DNA from: Escherichia coli
GTDB lineage: Bacteria; Pseudomonadota; Gammaproteobacteria; Enterobacterales; Enterobacteriaceae
Length of the DNA stretch: 64,000 nucleotides
NCBI RefSeq assembly: GCF_003334355.1
Contig: NZ_QOWP01000020.1
Reading direction: 5' to 3' (one strand)
The notes beneath the pieces are model-generated. The model saw only the letters and a list, made by a program, of their open reading frames with translations, searched no databases and was not told the origin of the DNA. Positions 11,756 to 64,000 of this stretch are shown here, in pieces. How positions within the stretch are numbered: position 1 is the stretch's first letter; each line of letters starts with the position of its first letter. The position numbers and the translations under genes are program-made.

Positions 11756-12271
11756 ATGCTGAGATTACTTGAAGAAAAAATTGCCACGCCACTGGGTCCA
11801 CTGTGGGTGATTTGCGATGAGCAATTTCGCCTGCGGGCGGTTGAATGGGAAGAGTACAGCGAACGCATGGTGCAGCTGCTGGACATCCATTATCGCAAAG
11901 AAGGCTATGAGCGCATTTCTGCCACCAATCCAGGCGGTTTAAGCGACAAGCTTCGTGAATATTTTGCCGGTAATCTTAGCATTATTGATACGCTTCCCAC
12001 TGCTACGGGGGGGACGCCATTTCAGCGCGAAGTCTGGAAAACACTACGCACTATCCCCTGCGGGCAGGTAATGCATTACGGCCAACTGGCTGAGCAATTG
12101 GGCCGTCCTGGCGCGGCGCGTGCCGTTGGTGCGGCAAACGGATCGAATCCCATCAGCATCGTCGTACCTTGCCATCGGGTTATTGGCCGAAACGGCACCA
12201 TGACCGGATATGCAGGCGGAGTTCAGCGAAAAGAGTGGTTATTGCGCCATGAAGGTTATCTTTTGCTGTAA
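11756..12271 (+). CDS. ogt: O6-alkylguanine-DNA alkyltransferase Ogt
   Basis: 171-aa ORF with active-site PCHRV motif. Confidence 0.94.
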
Positions 12272-12432
12272 ACATTAAACAATTTGTGCCAGCTTGTTCA
12301 CACTTTTATGTAAAGTTACCCTTAGCAACTTAAGGGTTTTCAAATAGATAGACATATATTTACATCTAATATCGGAATTCTCTGCTGTTAAGGTTTGCTT
12401 AGGCTTACTTGCTCCCTAAAAAGATGTTAAAA

Positions 12433-12446
12433 TTGACAAATATCAA
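12433..12446. promoter_or_regulatory. FNR-box-like palindrome in the fnr promoter region
   Basis: ttgacaaatatcaa is close to the FNR consensus TTGAT-N4-ATCAA, about 20-30 nt upstream of the fnr start; consistent with known fnr autoregulation. Confidence 0.6.
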
Positions 12447-12465
12447 TTACGGCTTGAGCAGACCT

Positions 12466-13218
12466 ATGATCCCGGAAAAGCGAATTATACGGCGCATTCA
12501 GTCTGGCGGTTGTGCTATCCATTGCCAGGATTGCAGCATCAGCCAGCTTTGCATCCCGTTCACACTCAACGAACATGAGCTTGATCAGCTTGATAATATC
12601 ATTGAGCGGAAGAAGCCTATTCAGAAAGGCCAGACGCTGTTTAAGGCTGGTGATGAACTTAAATCGCTTTATGCCATCCGCTCCGGTACGATTAAAAGTT
12701 ATACCATCACTGAGCAAGGCGACGAGCAAATCACTGGTTTCCATTTAGCAGGCGACCTGGTGGGATTTGACGCCATCGGCAGCGGCCATCACCCGAGCTT
12801 CGCGCAGGCGCTGGAAACCTCGATGGTATGTGAAATCCCGTTCGAAACGCTGGACGATTTGTCCGGTAAAATGCCGAATCTGCGTCAGCAGATGATGCGT
12901 CTGATGAGCGGTGAAATCAAAGGCGATCAGGACATGATCCTGCTGTTGTCGAAGAAAAATGCCGAGGAACGTCTGGCTGCATTCATCTACAACCTGTCCC
13001 GTCGTTTTGCCCAACGCGGCTTCTCCCCTCGTGAATTCCGCCTGACGATGACTCGTGGCGATATCGGTAACTATCTGGGCCTGACGGTAGAAACCATCAG
13101 CCGTCTGCTGGGTCGCTTCCAGAAAAGCGGCATGCTGGCAGTCAAAGGTAAATACATCACCATCGAAAATAACGATGCGCTGGCCCAGCTTGCTGGTCAT
13201 ACGCGTAACGTTGCCTGA
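12466..13218 (+). CDS. fnr: fumarate/nitrate reduction global regulator FNR
   Basis: ORF 12409..13218; true start ATG at 12466 ([29 protein letters not shown]...), 250 aa; N-terminal Cys cluster plus CRP-type HTH. Confidence 0.96.
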
Positions 13219-13369
13219 TTTTTCCGCATAACTCACTATCCTTCTGTCATATCATTAAATTTTTCTGATTTATTGATCTGGCAGAAGGTTCATCACTGTT
13301 TCATTCACCAGATATGGGTTAATCTTTTAATTACAAACTGCGTTGACAGTTGTTGTAAGGAGACCCTGT

Positions 13370-14320
13370 ATGGCTATGTATCAGAACATGCTCGTTGTTA
13401 TCGATCCTAACCAGGACGACCAACCAGCATTGCGGCGAGCTGTTTATTTACATCAACGGATTGGTGGCAAAATTAAAGCCTTTTTGCCGATCTATGACTT
13501 CTCATACGAAATGACCACCCTGCTCTCCCCGGACGAACGTACCGCTATGCGTCAGGGCGTCATCAGCCAGCGTACAGCCTGGATCCACGAGCAGGCAAAA
13601 TATTATCTCAATGCTGGCGTTCCCATTGAAATTAAAGTGGTCTGGCATAACCGTCCTTTCGAAGCCATCATTCAGGAAGTGATCAGCGGCGGGCACGATT
13701 TGGTGCTAAAAATGGCGCACCAACATGACCGTCTGGAAGCGGTGATTTTTACGCCAACGGACTGGCATCTGTTACGCAAATGCCCAAGCCCGGTGTGGAT
13801 GGTGAAAGACCAGCCGTGGCCGGAAGGAGGTAAGGCGCTGGTGGCGGTGAATCTCGCCAGTGAAGAGCCGTATCATAATGCGCTCAATGAAAAACTGGTC
13901 AAAGAGACGATCGAACTGGCAGAACAAGTCAACCATACCGAAGTTCATCTGGTTGGCGCTTACCCAGTAACGCCAATTAATATCGCGATTGAACTGCCGG
14001 AATTTGATCCGAGCGTTTATAACGATGCCATTCGTGGGCAACATTTGCTGGCAATGAAAGCCCTGCGGCAGAAATTCGGCATTAATGAAAACATGACGCA
14101 CGTAGAAAAAGGTCTGCCAGAAGAGGTGATTCCTGATTTGGCGGAGCACTTACAGGCGGGGATTGTGGTTCTGGGCACGGTAGGACGCACCGGTATTTCA
14201 GCAGCATTCCTCGGCAACACGGCGGAACAGGTGATTGATCATCTTCGCTGCGACCTGCTGGTCATTAAACCTGACCAGTATCAGACACCCGTTGAACTGG
14301 ATGACGAAGAAGACGATTAA
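13370..14320 (+). CDS. uspE: tandem universal stress protein UspE
   Basis: ORF 13343..14320; likely start ATG at 13370 ([13 protein letters not shown]...), 316 aa; two Usp domains. Confidence 0.93.
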
Positions 14321-14340
14321 CGACTCTTCAATAACTGACA

Positions 14341-14367
14341 AGGCCCGAGTTATCGGGCCTATTTTTT
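14341..14367 (+). terminator. intrinsic terminator after uspE
   Basis: Hairpin aggcccgagttatcgggcct followed by attttttac. Confidence 0.7.
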
Positions 14368-14369
14368 AC

Positions 14370-14627
14370 TTACTGCTCTTCGCCGCCAAGGAAATAAATT
14401 CCCAACGGGATTGCCAGCAACACAGTAAAGACCAGGCTATAAACAAAAATCATCGATGACTGAATCACATACATTGATGTCGTCCACTCAGACAGCGGAA
14501 TATTGTACTGTTCTATAACGCCGCCGATGGTCGCGCGAGTCACAACCGACGCCGCAATAATGAAAACCGCCAACAAACCAAAGAGAAATTTCTTCCCTTT
14601 CGCTGACTTCAGTTTCGCCATAATCAT
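14370..14627 (-). CDS. ynaJ: small inner-membrane protein YnaJ
   Basis: 85-aa ORF with two predicted transmembrane segments. Confidence 0.8.
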   Translation of the reverse strand: MIMAKLKSAKGKKFLFGLLAVFIIAASVVTRATIGGVIEQYNIPLSEWTTSMYVIQSSMIFVYSLVFTVLLAIPLGIYFLGGEEQ

Positions 14628-14870
14628 GATGTAATCCTTGTGCAGACAAATTTCTTGTTACCTAAACGTAACAATACCATGACATTTCACCGTTGTCTGC
14701 TCTGAAAACCTCACCTCTTAGCTGGATTTACAATCAACGCATTGATTAGTTAGCTAATGTTGCTACTTCCTTCCCTGACTATTGATGATCTGAATGAATT
14801 GTCGCGGTAAAATAGCCCCGCCAGGGGTTTCCGGCATGACGACAATTATCTGGAGGAGCCTGATAAAACA

Positions 14871-15902
14871 ATGATCGCTGAACTGTTTACAAATAATGCG
14901 CTTAATCTGGTCATTATTTTCGGTAGCTGCGCAGCATTGATTCTGATGAGCTTTTGGTTTCGCCGTGGAAATCGTAAAAGAAAAGGATTTTTATTCCATG
15001 CGGTGCAATTTTTAATCTACACCATAATTATCAGTGCTGTTGGTAGCATTATTAATTATGTTATAGAAAACTATAAACTCAAATTTATCACTCCAGGCGT
15101 TATCGATTTTATCTGTACGTCCCTGATTGCGGTTATTCTGACGATTAAGCTATTTCTGCTGATTAATCAGTTTGAAAAACAGCAGATTAAAAAAGGTCGC
15201 GATATCACCAGTGCGCGGATTATGTCGCGTATCATCAAAATCACCATTATTGTGGTGCTTGTTCTGCTTTATGGCGAACATTTCGGCATGAGCCTTTCTG
15301 GCTTGCTGACCTTTGGTGGTATTGGTGGTCTGGCTGTCGGTATGGCCGGTAAAGATATTCTGAGTAACTTCTTTTCCGGGATTATGCTCTATTTCGACCG
15401 TCCTTTCAGTATTGGCGACTGGATCCGTTCACCGGACAGAAATATCGAAGGTACAGTAGCGGAAATTGGCTGGCGAATTACCAAAATTACGACCTTTGAT
15501 AATCGTCCATTGTACGTACCGAACTCGCTGTTTTCGTCGATCAGCGTAGAAAACCCAGGACGAATGACCAACCGCCGCATTACCACGACCATTGGTTTAC
15601 GTTATGAGGATGCGGCAAAAGTGGGCGTTATTGTCGAAGCTGTACGTGAGATGCTGAAAAATCACCCGGCCATCGACCAGCGACAAACCTTACTGGTTTA
15701 TTTCAACCAGTTTGCTGACTCTTCATTGAATATTATGGTTTATTGCTTTACCAAAACCACGGTATGGGCTGAATGGCTTGCTGCACAGCAAGACGTTTAT
15801 TTGAAGATTATCGATATTGTACAGTCACACGGCGCGGACTTTGCCTTCCCCAGCCAGACGCTGTATATGGATAACATTACACCGCCGGAACAGGGTCGCT
15901 AA
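14871..15902 (+). CDS. ynaI: MscS-family mechanosensitive channel YnaI
   Basis: 343-aa ORF; N-terminal transmembrane helices plus MscS beta-domain; good RBS (ggaggag). Confidence 0.92.
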
Positions 15903-15952
15903 ATCAGACATCACTGGCGTTATGCACAAGGGTAACGCCAGTTCCCATCACA

Positions 15953-17566
15953 TCAATGCTTCACAATATACATAGTCCGACTGTACGCCACATCTTCAGG
16001 ATTATTAATGGGATAACCTTTCAGCCACGGCTTGATTAATCGTCCATTGGTATATTGATAAATTGGTGCAATCGGTGCTTGCTCCATGAGGATTTTTTCT
16101 GCCGCGTTGTAATCGGCATTACGCGCTTTAACGGTATTTTCCGTCGATGCCTGGGCCAGAACTTTGTCATATGCCGGATTGTTAAAGCGTGAAATATTTC
16201 CTGAATGCGTTGACGTTAATAATGTCAGGAAAGTGGAGGGTTCATTATAATCCCCCACCCACGAGGCGCGGATAACATCAAAATTGCCGGTGTTACGGCT
16301 ATCGATATAGGTTTTCCATTCCTGATTTTGCAATTTAACATCTACGCCAAGGTTCTTTTTCCACATCGATGCTACAGCAATCGCAATTTTTTGATGGTTT
16401 TCTGAAGTGTTATACAAAAGCGTCAGCTTCAGCGGTTTTTGCGGACCATAACCAGCTGCGCTCAACAAAGTTTTTGCCTGCGCATTCAGTTCTTCCTGAC
16501 TCATTTGTTCAAACGGCGAAGGTTCCGGCGTAAATCCCGCGGTAACATCTGGTGTAAAATGCCACGCTGGCTTTTCGCCCGTCCCTAATACTTTTTCGGT
16601 CATCAGGCGGCGATCTATCGTCATACTTAATGCCAGACGAACGCGCTGATCTGCCGTCGGCCCTTTTTGCGTGTTAAACGCATAATAATAGGTCCCGAGC
16701 TGCGGCGGCGTATAAACCTGCCCCGGAATATCCTTCAACAGCTTCTGATACATATTTTTCGGGAAGGATTCGGTGATATCAATATCCCCCGCGAGGTAAC
16801 GCTTAGTGGCTGCGGATTCCTGATTAATTGGCAGGAAGGTCACTTTTTGCAGTACCGTTTTGGCGTTATCCCAATAATGGGTATTCGGTACCACGACCAG
16901 TTTTTCATTGACTACGCGCTCTTTAAGAACATAAGCGCCATTGCCGATCAGATTTCCGGGTTTCGTCCACTCTTTACCGCTTTCTACGTTGGCTTTTTGC
17001 ACCGGGAAGAAGGCAAAGTTAGCGGTTAAATTCACAAACCACGGCAACGGTTTATCAAGCTGAATTTTCAAAGTATGGGCATCAACTGCGGTGACGCCAA
17101 GCTGGTCAGGCGTAGCTTTACCATCAATAATCGCCTGTGCGTTGTTGATTCCCGCCAGCGCGGCAAACCATGCAAATGGCGACAATGTTTTTGGGTCCAC
17201 CAGACGTTGCCAGCTGTAGACAAAATCTTGCGCCGTTACCGGTGTGCCATCCGCCCATTTTGCGTTATCGCGCAGGGTAAAAGTCCAGATACGGTTGTCA
17301 TTACTTTTCCACTGAGTCGCAACGCCGGGGACAATCTCCCCTTTTTCGTTCTGATTCACCAGACCTTCAAACAGATCGCGAATGACCTGAATCTCTGGCA
17401 GGCCCACGGCTTTAGCGGGATCCAGCGACGCAGGCTCATCTTTAATGTGGCGCACCAGCTCCTGCTTCTCTGCCAGTACTGTGCCGCTCGGAACTTCTGC
17501 AGCATACGAAAGAGAAATGCTGCTGACCAACAGCGCACAACACGTGACTGAAACAGAGTGCTTCAT
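15953..17566 (-). CDS. mppA: periplasmic murein tripeptide-binding protein MppA (OppA paralog)
   Basis: ORF 15953..17587; likely start at 17566 (MKHSVSVTCCALLVSS...), 537 aa; signal peptide; SBP family 5. Confidence 0.93.
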   Translation of the reverse strand: MKHSVSVTCCALLVSSISLSYAAEVPSGTVLAEKQELVRHIKDEPASLDPAKAVGLPEIQVIRDLFEGLVNQNEKGEIVPGVATQWKSNDNRIWTFTLRDNAKWADGTPVTAQDFVYSWQRLVDPKTLSPFAWFAALAGINNAQAIIDGKATPDQLGVTAVDAHTLKIQLDKPLPWFVNLTANFAFFPVQKANVESGKEWTKPGNLIGNGAYVLKERVVNEKLVVVPNTHYWDNAKTVLQKVTFLPINQESAATKRYLAGDIDITESFPKNMYQKLLKDIPGQVYTPPQLGTYYYAFNTQKGPTADQRVRLALSMTIDRRLMTEKVLGTGEKPAWHFTPDVTAGFTPEPSPFEQMSQEELNAQAKTLLSAAGYGPQKPLKLTLLYNTSENHQKIAIAVASMWKKNLGVDVKLQNQEWKTYIDSRNTGNFDVIRASWVGDYNEPSTFLTLLTSTHSGNISRFNNPAYDKVLAQASTENTVKARNADYNAAEKILMEQAPIAPIYQYTNGRLIKPWLKGYPINNPEDVAYSRTMYIVKH

Positions 17567-17902
17567 AAGTTTCCCTCTAACCGACATTAAAATTGATGCG
17601 TAATTATTTGTTTCGCCTTAAAGAAATGCAAACAACTTCCATCAAAAAAGTGACAAAGGAAGCATCAAATGTTTTAAGTATCAATATATCAAATCAGATT
17701 TAGTGTAAATAATAGTCTCCAAAATGCGGTAAAGCACATAGAACTCCGAACACTACGTTCGGGCTTCGCACGTTCAAACCCGTTTTCGGTATCATAATCA
17801 GCATCTGTCGCCATTGTACGAAGAATAAAAAATGACCAAAACGTTGAAAGGAACTGAGAATACGTTAAGAGAAGAATTAAATTAATGTATCAGCAAGTAG
17901 TG

Positions 17903-18802
17903 CTAAACAGCACCTTTATACTTCAGCCTATCTATAAATAATGAGAATGCCGAGCCAGCATGTCGACGGTGTGGATAGTACAGGTGATAACCGGGTAAAT
18001 CTGGTGTGAATTTATCCAAAACACGTATCAGTTTTTTTTCTTTAATAGCCCGCTCAACCTGATCATAAGGTAGATACGCCAATCCATGCCCATCAATTGC
18101 AGCATCAATGATCAGGTCTATCGTATTCAGTAAAAGCTGACCTTCCATGCGAACACGAACTTCACGTCCACCGCGTATTAATCTCCAGCGATTTGCTGTA
18201 CCCGATGTGGGAAGATACAAATTAATTGCCTGATGATCTATTAATTGTGACACTGACGTTGGAACACTTCGGCGAGAAAAATAATCCGGTGAGCCAACAA
18301 TAGCCATTGGTATATCTGGCCCGATTCGAATGGCGATCATATCTTTATCCATCTCCCCACCCAGACGGACGCCTGCATCAAAACGTTCAGAAACGACATC
18401 GGTCAAACCATAATCAATGGTGAGCTGAATATCAATTTCAGGATGCGATTTCAGGAATGTGCGCATTGCTGGTAACAATATCGTTTTTGCTGCATGTTCT
18501 ACAGTAGTAATACGTATTGTCCCGGATGGGCGGTTCTGCAGATCGCTCAGGGATGCCATGGCTGAATCTATGTCATGCAACATAGGGCCAAGAACAGACA
18601 AAAGATGCTCGCCCGCTTCAGTTGGAACAACGCTGCGCGTGGTTCGCGTCAGAAGCCGCAATCCCAATCGTTCTTCTATACGACGCACTATCTGGCTTAA
18701 AGCTGACTGCGCCATGCTCAGGCGGGCTGCTGCACGAGTGAAGCTACGCTCCTCTGCAACGACGACAAACGCCATCAGATCAGCGATTTCTTCACGCTTC
18801 AT
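17903..18802 (-). CDS. pgrR: LysR-family regulator PgrR (YcjZ)
   Basis: 299-aa ORF with N-terminal LysR HTH. Confidence 0.88.
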   Translation of the reverse strand: MKREEIADLMAFVVVAEERSFTRAAARLSMAQSALSQIVRRIEERLGLRLLTRTTRSVVPTEAGEHLLSVLGPMLHDIDSAMASLSDLQNRPSGTIRITTVEHAAKTILLPAMRTFLKSHPEIDIQLTIDYGLTDVVSERFDAGVRLGGEMDKDMIAIRIGPDIPMAIVGSPDYFSRRSVPTSVSQLIDHQAINLYLPTSGTANRWRLIRGGREVRVRMEGQLLLNTIDLIIDAAIDGHGLAYLPYDQVERAIKEKKLIRVLDKFTPDLPGYHLYYPHRRHAGSAFSLFIDRLKYKGAV

Positions 18803-59032: not shown

Positions 59033-59479
59033 GTGATAGATAAAATTAAATCAAATGCGCGTGATTTAAGACGCAATCTCACTTTGCAGGAACGAAAGCT
59101 CTGGCGATATCTTCGCAGCCGACGTTTTAGTGATTTCAAATTTCGCCGTCAACATCCAGTGGGGAGCTACATTCTCGATTTTGCTTGCTGCTCGGCGCGT
59201 GTAGTCGTTGAGCTGGATGGTGGGCAGCATGATTTAGCAGTTGCCTATGATTCCAGGCGCACTAGCTGGCTTGAGTCGCAGGGCTGGACCGTGCTGCGTT
59301 TCTGGAATAACGAGATTGATTGTAATGAGGAGACGGTGCTGGAGAATATTCGGCAAGGTCTGAACCGTCCCAGCCATCGCCATGAAAGGGTTAGGGGCTG
59401 TATGAGCCTGTTTGTTGCTGGGGTAACAATATTTGCACAATACGGTCCCCTCGCCCCTCTGGGGAGAGGGTTAGGGTGA
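59033..59479 (+). CDS. ycjD: DUF559 endonuclease-like domain protein (YcjD-like)
   Basis: ORF with a Vsr/DUF559-like core (...VVELDGGQHD...). The 148-aa reading frame continues into the GC-rich repeat at 59440-59500, so the C-terminus is probably extended relative to K-12 YcjD (about 117 aa by my recollection). Confidence 0.7.
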   Translation: MIDKIKSNARDLRRNLTLQERKLWRYLRSRRFSDFKFRRQHPVGSYILDFACCSARVVVELDGGQHDLAVAYDSRRTSWLESQGWTVLRFWNNEIDCNEETVLENIRQGLNRPSHRHERVRGCMSLFVAGVTIFAQYGPLAPLGRGLG

Positions 59480-59512
59480 GGGGAAAAGCGCCCCCCCCTG
59501 CCGCAGCCTGCT
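59441..59512. repeat. GC-rich repetitive element (boxC-like) upstream of fabI
   Basis: ggtcccctcgcccctctggggagagggttagggtgaggggaaaagcgcccccccctgccg is an imperfect palindrome of the kind described as boxC in the envM/fabI region. Confidence 0.5.
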
Positions 59513-59648
59513 CCGGTCGGACCTGGCAACTATAGCTACTCACAGCCAGGTTGATTATAATAACCGTTTATCTGTTCGTACTGTTTACTAAAACGACGAA
59601 TCGCCTGATTTTCAGGCACAACAAGCATCAACAATAAGGATTAAAGCT

Positions 59649-60437
59649 ATGGGTTTTCTTTCCGGTAAGCGCATTCTGGTAACCGGTGTTGCCAGCAAAC
59701 TATCCATCGCCTACGGTATCGCTCAGGCGATGCACCGCGAAGGAGCTGAACTGGCATTCACCTACCAGAACGACAAACTGAAAGGCCGCGTAGAAGAATT
59801 TGCCGCTCAATTGGGTTCTGACATCGTTCTGCAGTGCGATGTTGCAGAAGATGCCAGCATCGACACCATGTTCGCTGAACTGGGGAAAGTTTGGCCGAAA
59901 TTTGACGGTTTCGTACACTCTATTGGTTTTGCACCTGGCGATCAGCTGGATGGTGATTATGTTAACGCCGTTACCCGTGAAGGCTTCAAAATTGCCCACG
60001 ACATCAGCTCCTACAGCTTCGTTGCAATGGCAAAAGCTTGCCGCTCCATGCTGAATCCGGGTTCTGCCCTGCTGACCCTTTCCTACCTTGGCGCTGAGCG
60101 CGCTATCCCGAACTACAACGTTATGGGTCTGGCAAAAGCGTCTCTGGAAGCGAACGTGCGCTATATGGCGAACGCGATGGGTCCGGAAGGTGTGCGTGTT
60201 AACGCCATCTCTGCTGGTCCGATCCGTACTCTGGCGGCTTCCGGTATCAAAGACTTCCGCAAAATGCTGGCTCATTGCGAAGCCGTTACCCCGATTCGCC
60301 GTACCGTTACTATTGAAGATGTGGGTAACTCTGCGGCATTCCTGTGCTCCGATCTCTCTGCCGGTATCTCCGGTGAAGTAGTCCACGTTGACGGCGGTTT
60401 CAGCATCGCTGCAATGAACGAACTCGAACTGAAATAA
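59649..60437 (+). CDS. fabI: enoyl-ACP reductase FabI
   Basis: 262-aa ORF; matches E. coli FabI. Confidence 0.97.
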
Positions 60438-60456
60438 TCGTTCTGTTAGTAAAGAT

Positions 60457-60483
60457 GGGCGGCGTTCTGCCGCCCGTTATCTC
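60457..60483 (+). terminator. intrinsic terminator after fabI
   Basis: Hairpin gggcggcgttctgccgccc followed by a T-rich stretch. Confidence 0.7.
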
Positions 60484-60580
60484 TGTTATACCTTTCTGAT
60501 ATTTGTTATCGCCGATCCGTCTTTCTCCCCTTCCCGCCTTGCGTCAGGATAACGATTTCCTTTACGACCAAGGAGCGCCC

Positions 60581-61708
60581 ATGGAACAACGCCACATCAC
60601 CGGCAAAAGCCACTGGTATCATGAAACGCAATCCAGTACTGCGGAGTATGACGTTCTGCCTCTGGTCCCGGAAGCCGCAAAGGTCAGCGATCCCTTTCTG
60701 CTCGACGTGATCCTTGATGAAGAAACGCTGGCTCCCTTCCTTTCATGGCTGGTCCCTGCGCGCGTTCTTGCAGTGGAATTGTTCCCTGACCAGCTTACCG
60801 TGACCCGTTCACAGACCTTCACCGCTTATGAACGCTTGTCTACGGCCCTGACGGTTGCTCAGGTTTGCGGCGTCCAGCGGTTATGTAACTACTATTCGGC
60901 GCGACTTACGCCGCTCCCCGGGCCTGATTCCTCCAGGGAAAGCAATCATAGGTTGGCACAAATCACGCAATATGCCCGCCAACTGGCTAGCTCGCCTTCT
61001 ATTATCGACAACCGATCGCGCCAGCATCTGAATGACGTCGGTCTTACTGCCTGGGACTGTGTGATCATTAACCAAATCATTGGTTTTATTGGCTTTCAGG
61101 CGCGGACCATTGCGACATTTCAGGCTTATCTCGGGCACCCGGTACGCTGGTTACCCGGTCTGGAAATACAAAACTACGCCGACGCGTCACTGTTTGCTGA
61201 TGAATCAATACGCTGGCGAAGCAGCTATGAGGTGGAAAAACTACCTGAAGAGTACACAAAAAGTTCAACTGCAGAACTTTGCCAACTGGCCGAAACACTC
61301 TCTCTCCACCCTATTTCACTTTCCCTTCTCGAAAGGTTGTTAAACAGTACACGGGTTAATACACAGCCGGATAATAAGCTTGCGGCGTTGTTATGCGCGC
61401 GGATAAATGGCAGTCCTGCTTGTTTTGCCGCCTGTATGGATTCATCAAATGAATATAAAAAAATCAGCGCTCTTGTGCGCAAGGGCGAAAATGAAATTAA
61501 CCAATGGGCTGACCGTCATTCTGTTGAGCACGCTACCGTTCAGGCGATACAATGGCTGACCCGAGCACCCGATCGCTTTAGCGCCGCCCAGTTCAGCCCT
61601 TTACTCGAACACGAAAAATCATCAACGCAGATTATTAATCTGCTGGTATGGAGCGGGCTGTGTGGCTGGATAAATCGCTTAAAAATCGCGTTGGGTGAGA
61701 CATATTAA
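60581..61708 (+). CDS. yciW: YciW (AhpD/CMD-like oxidoreductase family)
   Basis: ORF 60503..61708; likely start at 60581 (MEQRHITGK...) after aggagcg RBS; 375 aa. Confidence 0.88.
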
Positions 61709-61775
61709 CCTTGCCGCGTCAGACAGATTCGCGTAAAACTGTCAGCCGCTCTAATGGCCACCAAAATAGACAATT

Positions 61776-63710
61776 ATGTTTCAGGACAACCCGCTGCTAG
61801 CGCAGCTTAAACAGCAACTGCATTCCCAGACGCCACGCGCTGAAGGGGTGGTAAAAGCCACAGAAAAAGGCTTTGGCTTCCTGGAAGTCGACGCGCAAAA
61901 AAGTTATTTCATTCCGCCGCCGCAGATGAAAAAAGTCATGCATGGCGACCGAATTATCGCGGTGATCCACAGTGAAAAAGAACGTGAATCCGCAGAGCCA
62001 GAAGAACTGGTTGAACCGTTCCTGACTCGTTTCGTGGGTAAGGTTCAGGGCAAAAATGACCGTCTGGCCATCGTTCCTGATCATCCACTCTTAAAAGACG
62101 CCATTCCTTGCCGCGCAGCCCGTGGCCTGAACCACGAGTTTAAAGAAGGCGACTGGGCGGTTGCCGAAATGCGCCGTCATCCGCTGAAAGGCGATCGTTC
62201 TTTCTATGCAGAACTGACACAATACATCACTTTTGGTGACGATCACTTTGTACCGTGGTGGGTTACCCTTGCACGCCATAATCTGGAAAAAGAAGCACCA
62301 GACGGCGTCGCTACCGAAATGCTCGATGAAGGTCTGGTTCGTGAAGATCTGACCGCGCTGGATTTTGTCACCATCGACAGTGCCAGCACAGAAGATATGG
62401 ATGACGCCCTTTTCGCTAAGGCGTTGCCGGATGACAAACTTCAGCTGATTGTGGCGATTGCCGATCCAACCGCGTGGATTGCTGAAGGCAGCAAGCTGGA
62501 CAAAGCCGCGAAAATTCGCGCATTCACCAACTATCTGCCTGGCTTCAACATCCCTATGCTGCCTCGCGAGCTTTCTGACGATCTCTGCTCACTGCGCGCC
62601 AATGAAGTCCGCCCGGTACTGGCATGCCGCATGACGCTCTCCGCTGATGGCACCATTGAAGATAATATCGAATTCTTTGCCGCCACCATCGAATCCAAAG
62701 CAAAGCTGGTGTATGACCAGGTTTCTGACTGGCTGGAAAATACCGGTGACTGGCAGCCTGAAAGTGAAGCAATTGCCGAACAAGTCCGTTTGCTAGCGCA
62801 AATTTGCCAACGCCGCGGCGAGTGGCGTCATAACCACGCACTGGTGTTTAAAGATCGCCCGGATTACCGCTTTATTCTCGGTGAAAAAGGTGAAGTGCTG
62901 GATATCGTCGCCGAGCCTCGTCGCATTGCCAACCGTATCGTCGAAGAAGCGATGATTGCCGCTAACATTTGTGCGGCCCGCGTACTGCGCGATAAGCTCG
63001 GTTTTGGCATCTATAACGTGCATATGGGCTTTGATCCGGCGAATGCCGACGCGCTGGCAGCGTTGCTGAAAACGCACGGTCTGCATGTCGATGCCGAAGA
63101 AGTGCTCACGCTGGACGGTTTCTGCAAACTGCGTCGTGAACTGGATGCGCAACCAACTGGTTTCCTCGACAGCCGCATTCGTCGCTTCCAGTCATTTGCT
63201 GAAATTAGCACTGAACCCGGTCCTCACTTTGGCCTCGGTCTGGAAGCATACGCCACCTGGACATCGCCGATCCGTAAATATGGCGACATGATCAACCACC
63301 GTCTGCTGAAAGCGGTTATCAAAGGCGAAACTGCGACGCGTCCACAGGATGAGATCACTGTCCAAATGGCCGAGCGTCGCCGTCTCAATCGGATGGCAGA
63401 ACGTGATGTTGGTGACTGGTTATACGCACGCTTCCTGAAAGACAAAGCCGGGACCGACACCCGTTTCGCGGCGGAAATTGTCGATATCAGCCGTGGCGGC
63501 ATGCGTGTTCGTTTGGTTGATAACGGCGCTATCGCCTTTATTCCTGCACCTTTCTTACACGCTGTGCGCGATGAAATGGTTTGCAGCCAGGAAAACGGCA
63601 CCGTACAAATTAAAGGTGAAACGGTTTATAAAGTAACTGACGTTATTGACGTCACCATTGCCGAAGTCCGCATGGAAACCCGCAGCATTATTGCGCGCCC
63701 GGTCGCGTAA
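61776..63710 (+). CDS. rnb: exoribonuclease II
   Basis: 644-aa ORF with RNB domain and C-terminal S1 domain; matches RNase II. Confidence 0.97.
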
Positions 63711-63720
63711 TCTCCTTTCA

Positions 63721-63752
63721 CGGCCCATTCCTTATGAATGGGCCGTTTATTT
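63721..63752 (+). terminator. intrinsic terminator after rnb
   Basis: Hairpin cggcccattccttatgaatgggccg followed by tttattt. Confidence 0.8.
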
Positions 63753-63820
63753 CCCCGCTCTACCTTCATCATATCCCGGCAGTTTTTTAACTGACTTTCG
63801 TTTGAAAACTGGCGTTTTTC

Positions 63821-64000
63821 GGTGATGCTGCCAACTTACTGATTTAGTGTATGATGGTGTTTTTGAGGTGCTCCAGTGGCTTCTGTTTCTATCAGCTGTC
63901 CCTCCTGTTCAGCTACTGACGGGGTGGTGCGTAACGGCAAAAGCACTGCCGGACATCAGCGCTATCTCTGCTCTCACTGCCGTAAAACATGGCAACTGCA
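63821..64000 (+). mobile_element. IS1 insertion sequence, left end, truncated by the window edge
   Basis: ggtgatgctgccaacttactgatttagtgtatgatggtgtttttgaggtgctccagtggcttctgtttctatcagc... matches my recollection of the IS1 left terminal inverted repeat and the beginning of insA. Confidence 0.9.
63876..64000 (+). CDS. insA: IS1 InsA (partial, 5' part only)
   Basis: GTG start then [40 protein letters not shown]..., the InsA N-terminal zinc-finger region; the ORF continues beyond the window. Confidence 0.85.

Follow-up and report, generated by a model that had tools for sequence, protein, structure and literature searches.

The locus lies within a 64-kb stretch of Escherichia coli DNA that was analysed over its full length (hereafter the window). 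Two genes, ynaJ and ynaI, stand back-to-back on either side of a non-coding spacer and read away from each other, and the gene order around this spacer is fnr (plus strand), uspE (plus), ynaJ (minus), ynaI (plus), and mppA (minus) (Table 1). Strain MLI023K1 has DNA 100% identical to this region, and its RefSeq annotation confirmed the gene names. A sequence-only reading of the window had given the spacer a size of 240 bp and the limits 14627-14871. The size is approximately right, but these limits take in one base of each start codon, and the true span is the 243 bp shown in Table 1. When the spacer of the window was aligned with those of five phylogroup-diverse genomes, the alignment was gap-free over all 243 bp, with a mean column identity of 99%. 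An Rfam search of positions 13000-16500 with E values up to 1 left the spacer empty, and its sole sub-threshold match was a chance one inside fnr. The small ORFs in the spacer are mechanical ORFs of 21-31 aa with nothing supporting them, and its inverted repeats are short and unremarkable, with no notable repeat among them. At the other end of ynaJ, a GC-rich hairpin with T-runs is present at 14341-14360 between the convergent uspE and ynaJ genes; this hairpin is the ynaJ-uspE bidirectional terminator that served as a model in single-molecule work on RNAP collisions (bioRxiv 10.1101/2022.10.23.513370).

Table 1 Features of the ynaJ-ynaI region, with coordinates in the window
Feature	Position	Strand	Description	Basis
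ynaJ	14370-14627	minus	DUF2534 family protein, 85 aa	ORF and RefSeq annotation of identical DNA
ynaJ-ynaI intergenic spacer	14628-14870		uninterrupted, non-coding, 243 bp	ORF coordinates
Candidate ynaJ core promoter	14669-14699	minus	CAGACA, 17-nt spacer, TGgTATTGT (extended -10)	putative, by eye
Cluster of three adjacent YTAR tetramers	14746-14757		TTAG TTAG CTAA, including the 8-bp palindrome TTAGCTAA	read from sequence
Unoccupied IS5 target	14750-14753		TTAG, single copy	flank overlap of the K-12 alignments; duplicated around IS5F in MG1655
Candidate ynaI -10 hexamer	14808-14813	plus	TAAAAT, without a good -35	putative, by eye
ynaI	14871-15902	plus	low-conductance mechanosensitive channel, 343 aa	ORF and RefSeq annotation

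Inspection of the spacer by eye yielded a candidate core promoter for ynaJ and a candidate -10 hexamer for ynaI. The former scores 8 of 12, one short of the 9 of 12 required by a sigma-70 consensus scan, which returned 0 sites in 14300-15000, against 1.5 expected by chance. Both the candidate ynaJ -10 element and the ynaI TAAAAT are invariant in six strains. The leader RNA before ynaI (14790-14880) folded with a predicted energy of -23.6 kcal/mol (z = -0.85), which is no better than shuffled sequences. The ynaJ gene has been listed as a CRP SELEX target (PMC3105977); a search for TGTGA-N6-TCACA with up to 3 mismatches found no CRP site in the spacer, and the count over the whole window was at chance level. 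The spacer is probably a conserved promoter and leader region shared by the divergent ynaJ and ynaI genes.

We then compared the window with the IS5 element of K-12 MG1655. A blastn search of the MG1655 copy, IS5F, against all 64 kb (word size 11) gave only chance matches of 12-44 nt, with a best E value of 0.06, and within 14001-15515 the sequence closest to the 16-nt IS5 terminal repeat differs from it at 6 positions. No element of the IS5 type, that is, about 1.2 kb with 16-bp terminal inverted repeats and a DDE transposase gene, was found in the spacer or in the 64-kb window. The claim that the spacer contains neither a transposase nor an IS terminal repeat was therefore confirmed, as it is free of IS5 sequence, IS5 terminal repeats, and any other mobile element. 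That a spacer lacks an IS is no statistical signal by itself and becomes meaningful only relative to K-12.

The earlier reading had also placed an IS5 copy at this position in K-12 MG1655, and the annotation of NC_000913.3 bears this out: "insertion sequence:IS5F" occupies 1396044-1397238, with insH4 (b1331), between ynaI (b1330) and ynaJ (b1332). The window is colinear with MG1655 1346867-1411994 over its full length, in reverse orientation and at 98.8-99.75% identity; within the aligned part of the 64 kb, no large structural difference other than the IS5 separates the two. Alignment with the ynaI-ynaJ region of MG1655, which had been proposed as a check, showed that both flanks match and that K-12 has an extra 1195-bp IS5. 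BLAST returned two pieces, window 12000-14753 and 14750-18500, which match the K-12 flanks at 99.7-99.97% identity; a single mismatch occurs in the 3751 bp toward ynaI, and 7 occur in the 2754 bp toward ynaJ. The two pieces overlap by exactly 4 bp, the TTAG at 14750-14753, and K-12 has TTAG on both sides of the 1195-bp insert (1396040-1396043 and 1397239-1397242). The insert is bounded by inverted repeats, GGAAGGTGCGAA, with ends of the form GGAAGGTGCGAA(T/C)AAG, and the K-12 junctions read GATTAGTTAG followed by GGAAGGTGCGAATAAG at one end of the element and CTTGTTCGCACCTTCC followed by TTAGCTAATG at the other. Both alleles also have the adjacent TTAG at 14746-14749, which makes the assignment of the target unambiguous. 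The window thus has the chromosomal site and flanking sequence of the K-12 MG1655 IS5F/insH4 locus but lacks both the 1195-bp IS5 and the second TTAG. Because TTAG occurs there only once, the window contains the unoccupied target site of IS5F. Measured from the target, the ATG of ynaJ is 122 nt away and that of ynaI 117 nt, which places the target at the centre of the divergent upstream region. The consensus of IS5 targets is YTAR, which the TTAG at 14750-14753 fits by inspection; CTAA and CTAG have been cited as IS5 sites (PMC11677980).

To describe the distribution of the two alleles, 5426 complete E. coli genomes were screened with a 160-bp intact-site probe centred on the site and with probes for the two IS5 junctions of K-12. 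The intact site was found in 5057 of the 5426 genomes (approximately 93%), including UTI89 (phylogroup B2) and O157:H7, and the ynaI-side IS5 junction of K-12 was complete in 355. Among these 355, 64 genomes were inspected by name (a natural carrier outside K-12 may thus exist among the others), consisting of all 4 full-length matches of a spread sample and the 60 best matches, and all 64 have K-12 laboratory strain names or K-12-like genome sizes and MG1655 coordinates; MG1655, C600, J53, DH5alpha, DH1, HB101, RR1, NCM3722, and NEB strains are among the carriers. Approximately 11 further genomes lack the intact site for other reasons, FDAARGOS_943 among them. The ynaJ-side junction was complete in 346 genomes, 9 fewer than for the ynaI side; in the 9 extra genomes, IS5 might have rearranged the ynaJ/fnr side, as described for laboratory stocks. 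ME8067 was considered as a strain that had lost the ynaJ-side junction and was ruled out, as its annotation shows ynaI-IS5-ynaJ-uspE-fnr intact. The same allele as in the window was seen in the spacers of the non-K-12 strains MLI023K1, PSS-12, UTI89, and O157:H7 3384, all 243 bp long and at 98-100% identity; the identity to the window is 100% over 901 bp in MLI023K1 and 100.0% over 24.5 kb in PSS-12. Plasmid-labelled records accounted for six matches to the ynaJ-ynaI region; these records could be F-prime-type plasmids or mis-assigned contigs.

The description of the site as empty and ancestral is supported by these counts. Since the site is intact across phylogroups and the occupied state was seen only in K-12 laboratory derivatives (the 64 named), parsimony within E. 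coli alone supports the empty site as the probable ancestral state and the K-12 insertion as the derived one. An outgroup search with an exact 23-mer, using one genome per species, matched no relative within Escherichia; its sole match was a chance one in a coding sequence of an unrelated gammaproteobacterial MAG. The sequence of a single strain would fit the opposite history equally well: if IS5 had once occupied the site as in K-12 and been excised precisely between the flanking 4-bp direct repeats, a single TTAG and exactly the observed sequence would have resulted, and emptiness would be a secondary state. Such precise excision across repeats of 4 bp is, however, rare, and K-12 derivatives are ruled out as the source of the window by 8 SNPs in the 6.5 kb surrounding the site and a divergence of 0.25-0.4% across the 64 kb. 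Moreover, the same empty site is shared by the 5057 genomes across phylogroups, the occupied site being confined, among the 64 carriers named, to K-12 laboratory derivatives, and we saw no clade that has IS5 at the site in all its other members with the window strain nested inside. We therefore consider a secondary loss very improbable.

Another way to obtain an empty site would be an assembly artefact, in which an IS copy present in the organism was dropped or collapsed. This idea has some general plausibility, since IS copies are frequent points of breakage or mis-joining in short-read assemblies. By contrast, the junction in the window is base-for-base the same as in thousands of independent complete genomes, no duplicated TTAG is present, and part of an IS1 copy has been kept at 63821-64000, so IS elements were not systematically removed. 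An artefact is accordingly hardly conceivable here, even less so than excision. These results indicate that the window almost certainly carries the wild-type, never-occupied allele of the chromosomal site at which the K-12 lineage gained IS5F (insH4, b1331). In the ancestral arrangement, a 243-bp upstream region would have been common to the divergent ynaJ and ynaI genes, with IS5-type targets (TTAG TTAG CTAA) at its centre. In the ancestor of the K-12 laboratory strains, IS5 would have transposed into the second TTAG, duplicating it and pushing the upstream regions of ynaJ and ynaI 1.2 kb apart. The source strain of the window, which appears to be phylogroup-A-like and is approximately 99.6-99.75% identical to MG1655 over the 64 kb, would never have received this insertion.

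The spacer of FDAARGOS_943 contains a different insertion, a 912-bp IS5-family element (L003 4079-4990) that is not the K-12 IS5 and lies at TA(G) 14747-14749 in window coordinates. This element has a transposase with a programmed frameshift, terminal repeats GGCTGTGTCCCTTAAT, and a 2-3-bp TA(G) duplication, and it is absent from the window. Its insertion point is in the same spacer as the K-12 IS5 target and 1-3 bp away from it, which means that the cluster at 14746-14757 has been hit by two independent IS insertions within 3 bp of each other. The TTAG-TTAG-CTAA cluster is therefore possibly a recurrent IS target. As for the consequences of the K-12 insertion, the IS5 transposase reads toward ynaJ, and the element is situated approximately 120 bp from both start codons. 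The insertion would leave both candidate core promoters in place, the candidate ynaJ promoter being more than 50 bp from the IS5 target, and would separate each of them from anything upstream of roughly -50 to -65. An effect of the K-12 IS5 on the expression of ynaI or ynaJ may be suspected from this layout of elements. The combined proposal that the cluster is a recurrent landing pad for IS5-family elements and that the K-12 IS5 has changed the expression of ynaI and/or ynaJ is a speculative one, which we regard as rather unlikely. The arrangement is relevant to studies of ynaI and ynaJ regulation because K-12 has a 1.2-kb IS5 approximately 120 bp upstream of both genes and 93% of E. coli genomes do not. 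If IS5 did alter expression, conclusions on the abundance of the YnaI channel drawn from K-12 would not be representative of wild-type E. coli.

The insertion polymorphism of K-12 is already known, and the allele in the window is the common wild-type one. The K-12 element was recorded as "yi52_4" between b1330 and b1332 in a mapping of IS5 (PMC1174868), as "the known IS5 element b1331 to the right of ynaI" (PMC2072959), and as IS5 copy 4 at ynaI/ynaJ in BW25113, from which it was experimentally deleted (PMC11677980). In a W3110 stock (CGSC 7167), the b1331 IS5 and a second IS5 near ogt recombined, deleting ynaJ, uspE, and fnr, and similar fnr deletions were noted in MG1655 CGSC stocks (PMC2072959). 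The IS5 at the ynaI/ynaJ site is thus one of the recombination partners in K-12 stocks with ynaJ-uspE-fnr deletions (PMC2072959). Unlike those stocks, the window has ynaJ, uspE, and fnr intact and no IS5 at this site. The source strain therefore lacks one of the homologous repeats that drive these spontaneous deletions in K-12 stocks (PMC2072959), and the route to fnr loss by IS5 recombination is closed to it.

The sequence-only reading had called the empty site a strain marker and nothing more. This is a fair assessment and, if anything, a generous one, because most E. coli genomes are in the empty state, and this state excludes only K-12 ancestry. The finding confirms that the window does not derive from a K-12 laboratory strain and that it has the normal E. 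coli ynaJ-ynaI arrangement, and it otherwise matters very little. A far more specific strain marker is the IS1 copy near rnb. The final 180 bases of the window (63821-64000) are the left end of this copy (GGTGATGCTGCCAACTTACTGATTTAGTG...), which was inserted immediately past rnb in the direction of pdeR; no IS1 occupies this position in MG1655. The IS1-rnb junction was found at 100% in 1 of the 5426 complete genomes, that of PSS-12 (NZ_AP027697.1, from human faeces, Ecuador).

The comparison with PSS-12 (L012) covers window positions 2500-27000 and about 59400-63800. PSS-12 differs from the window in having IS1203, an IS3-family element of approximately 1.3 kb, which splits yciW; IS1203 is missing from the window, which keeps its colinearity with MG1655 at this point. 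The source strain is therefore closely related to PSS-12 but distinct from that assembly. In the ycjD-fabI region, positions 59329-59367 differ from MG1655 by a small indel or repeat: the aligned pieces share 39 nt on the window side, and approximately 68 nt of K-12 are skipped between them; the sequence just upstream has about 90% identity to MG1655, and ycjD is annotated as truncated in this region of PSS-12. At the other end, the start of the window corresponds to MG1655 1411994, at the 5' end of ttcA; the Rac cryptic prophage is annotated from 1411899 onward, and positions 1-95 of the window fall within its left edge.
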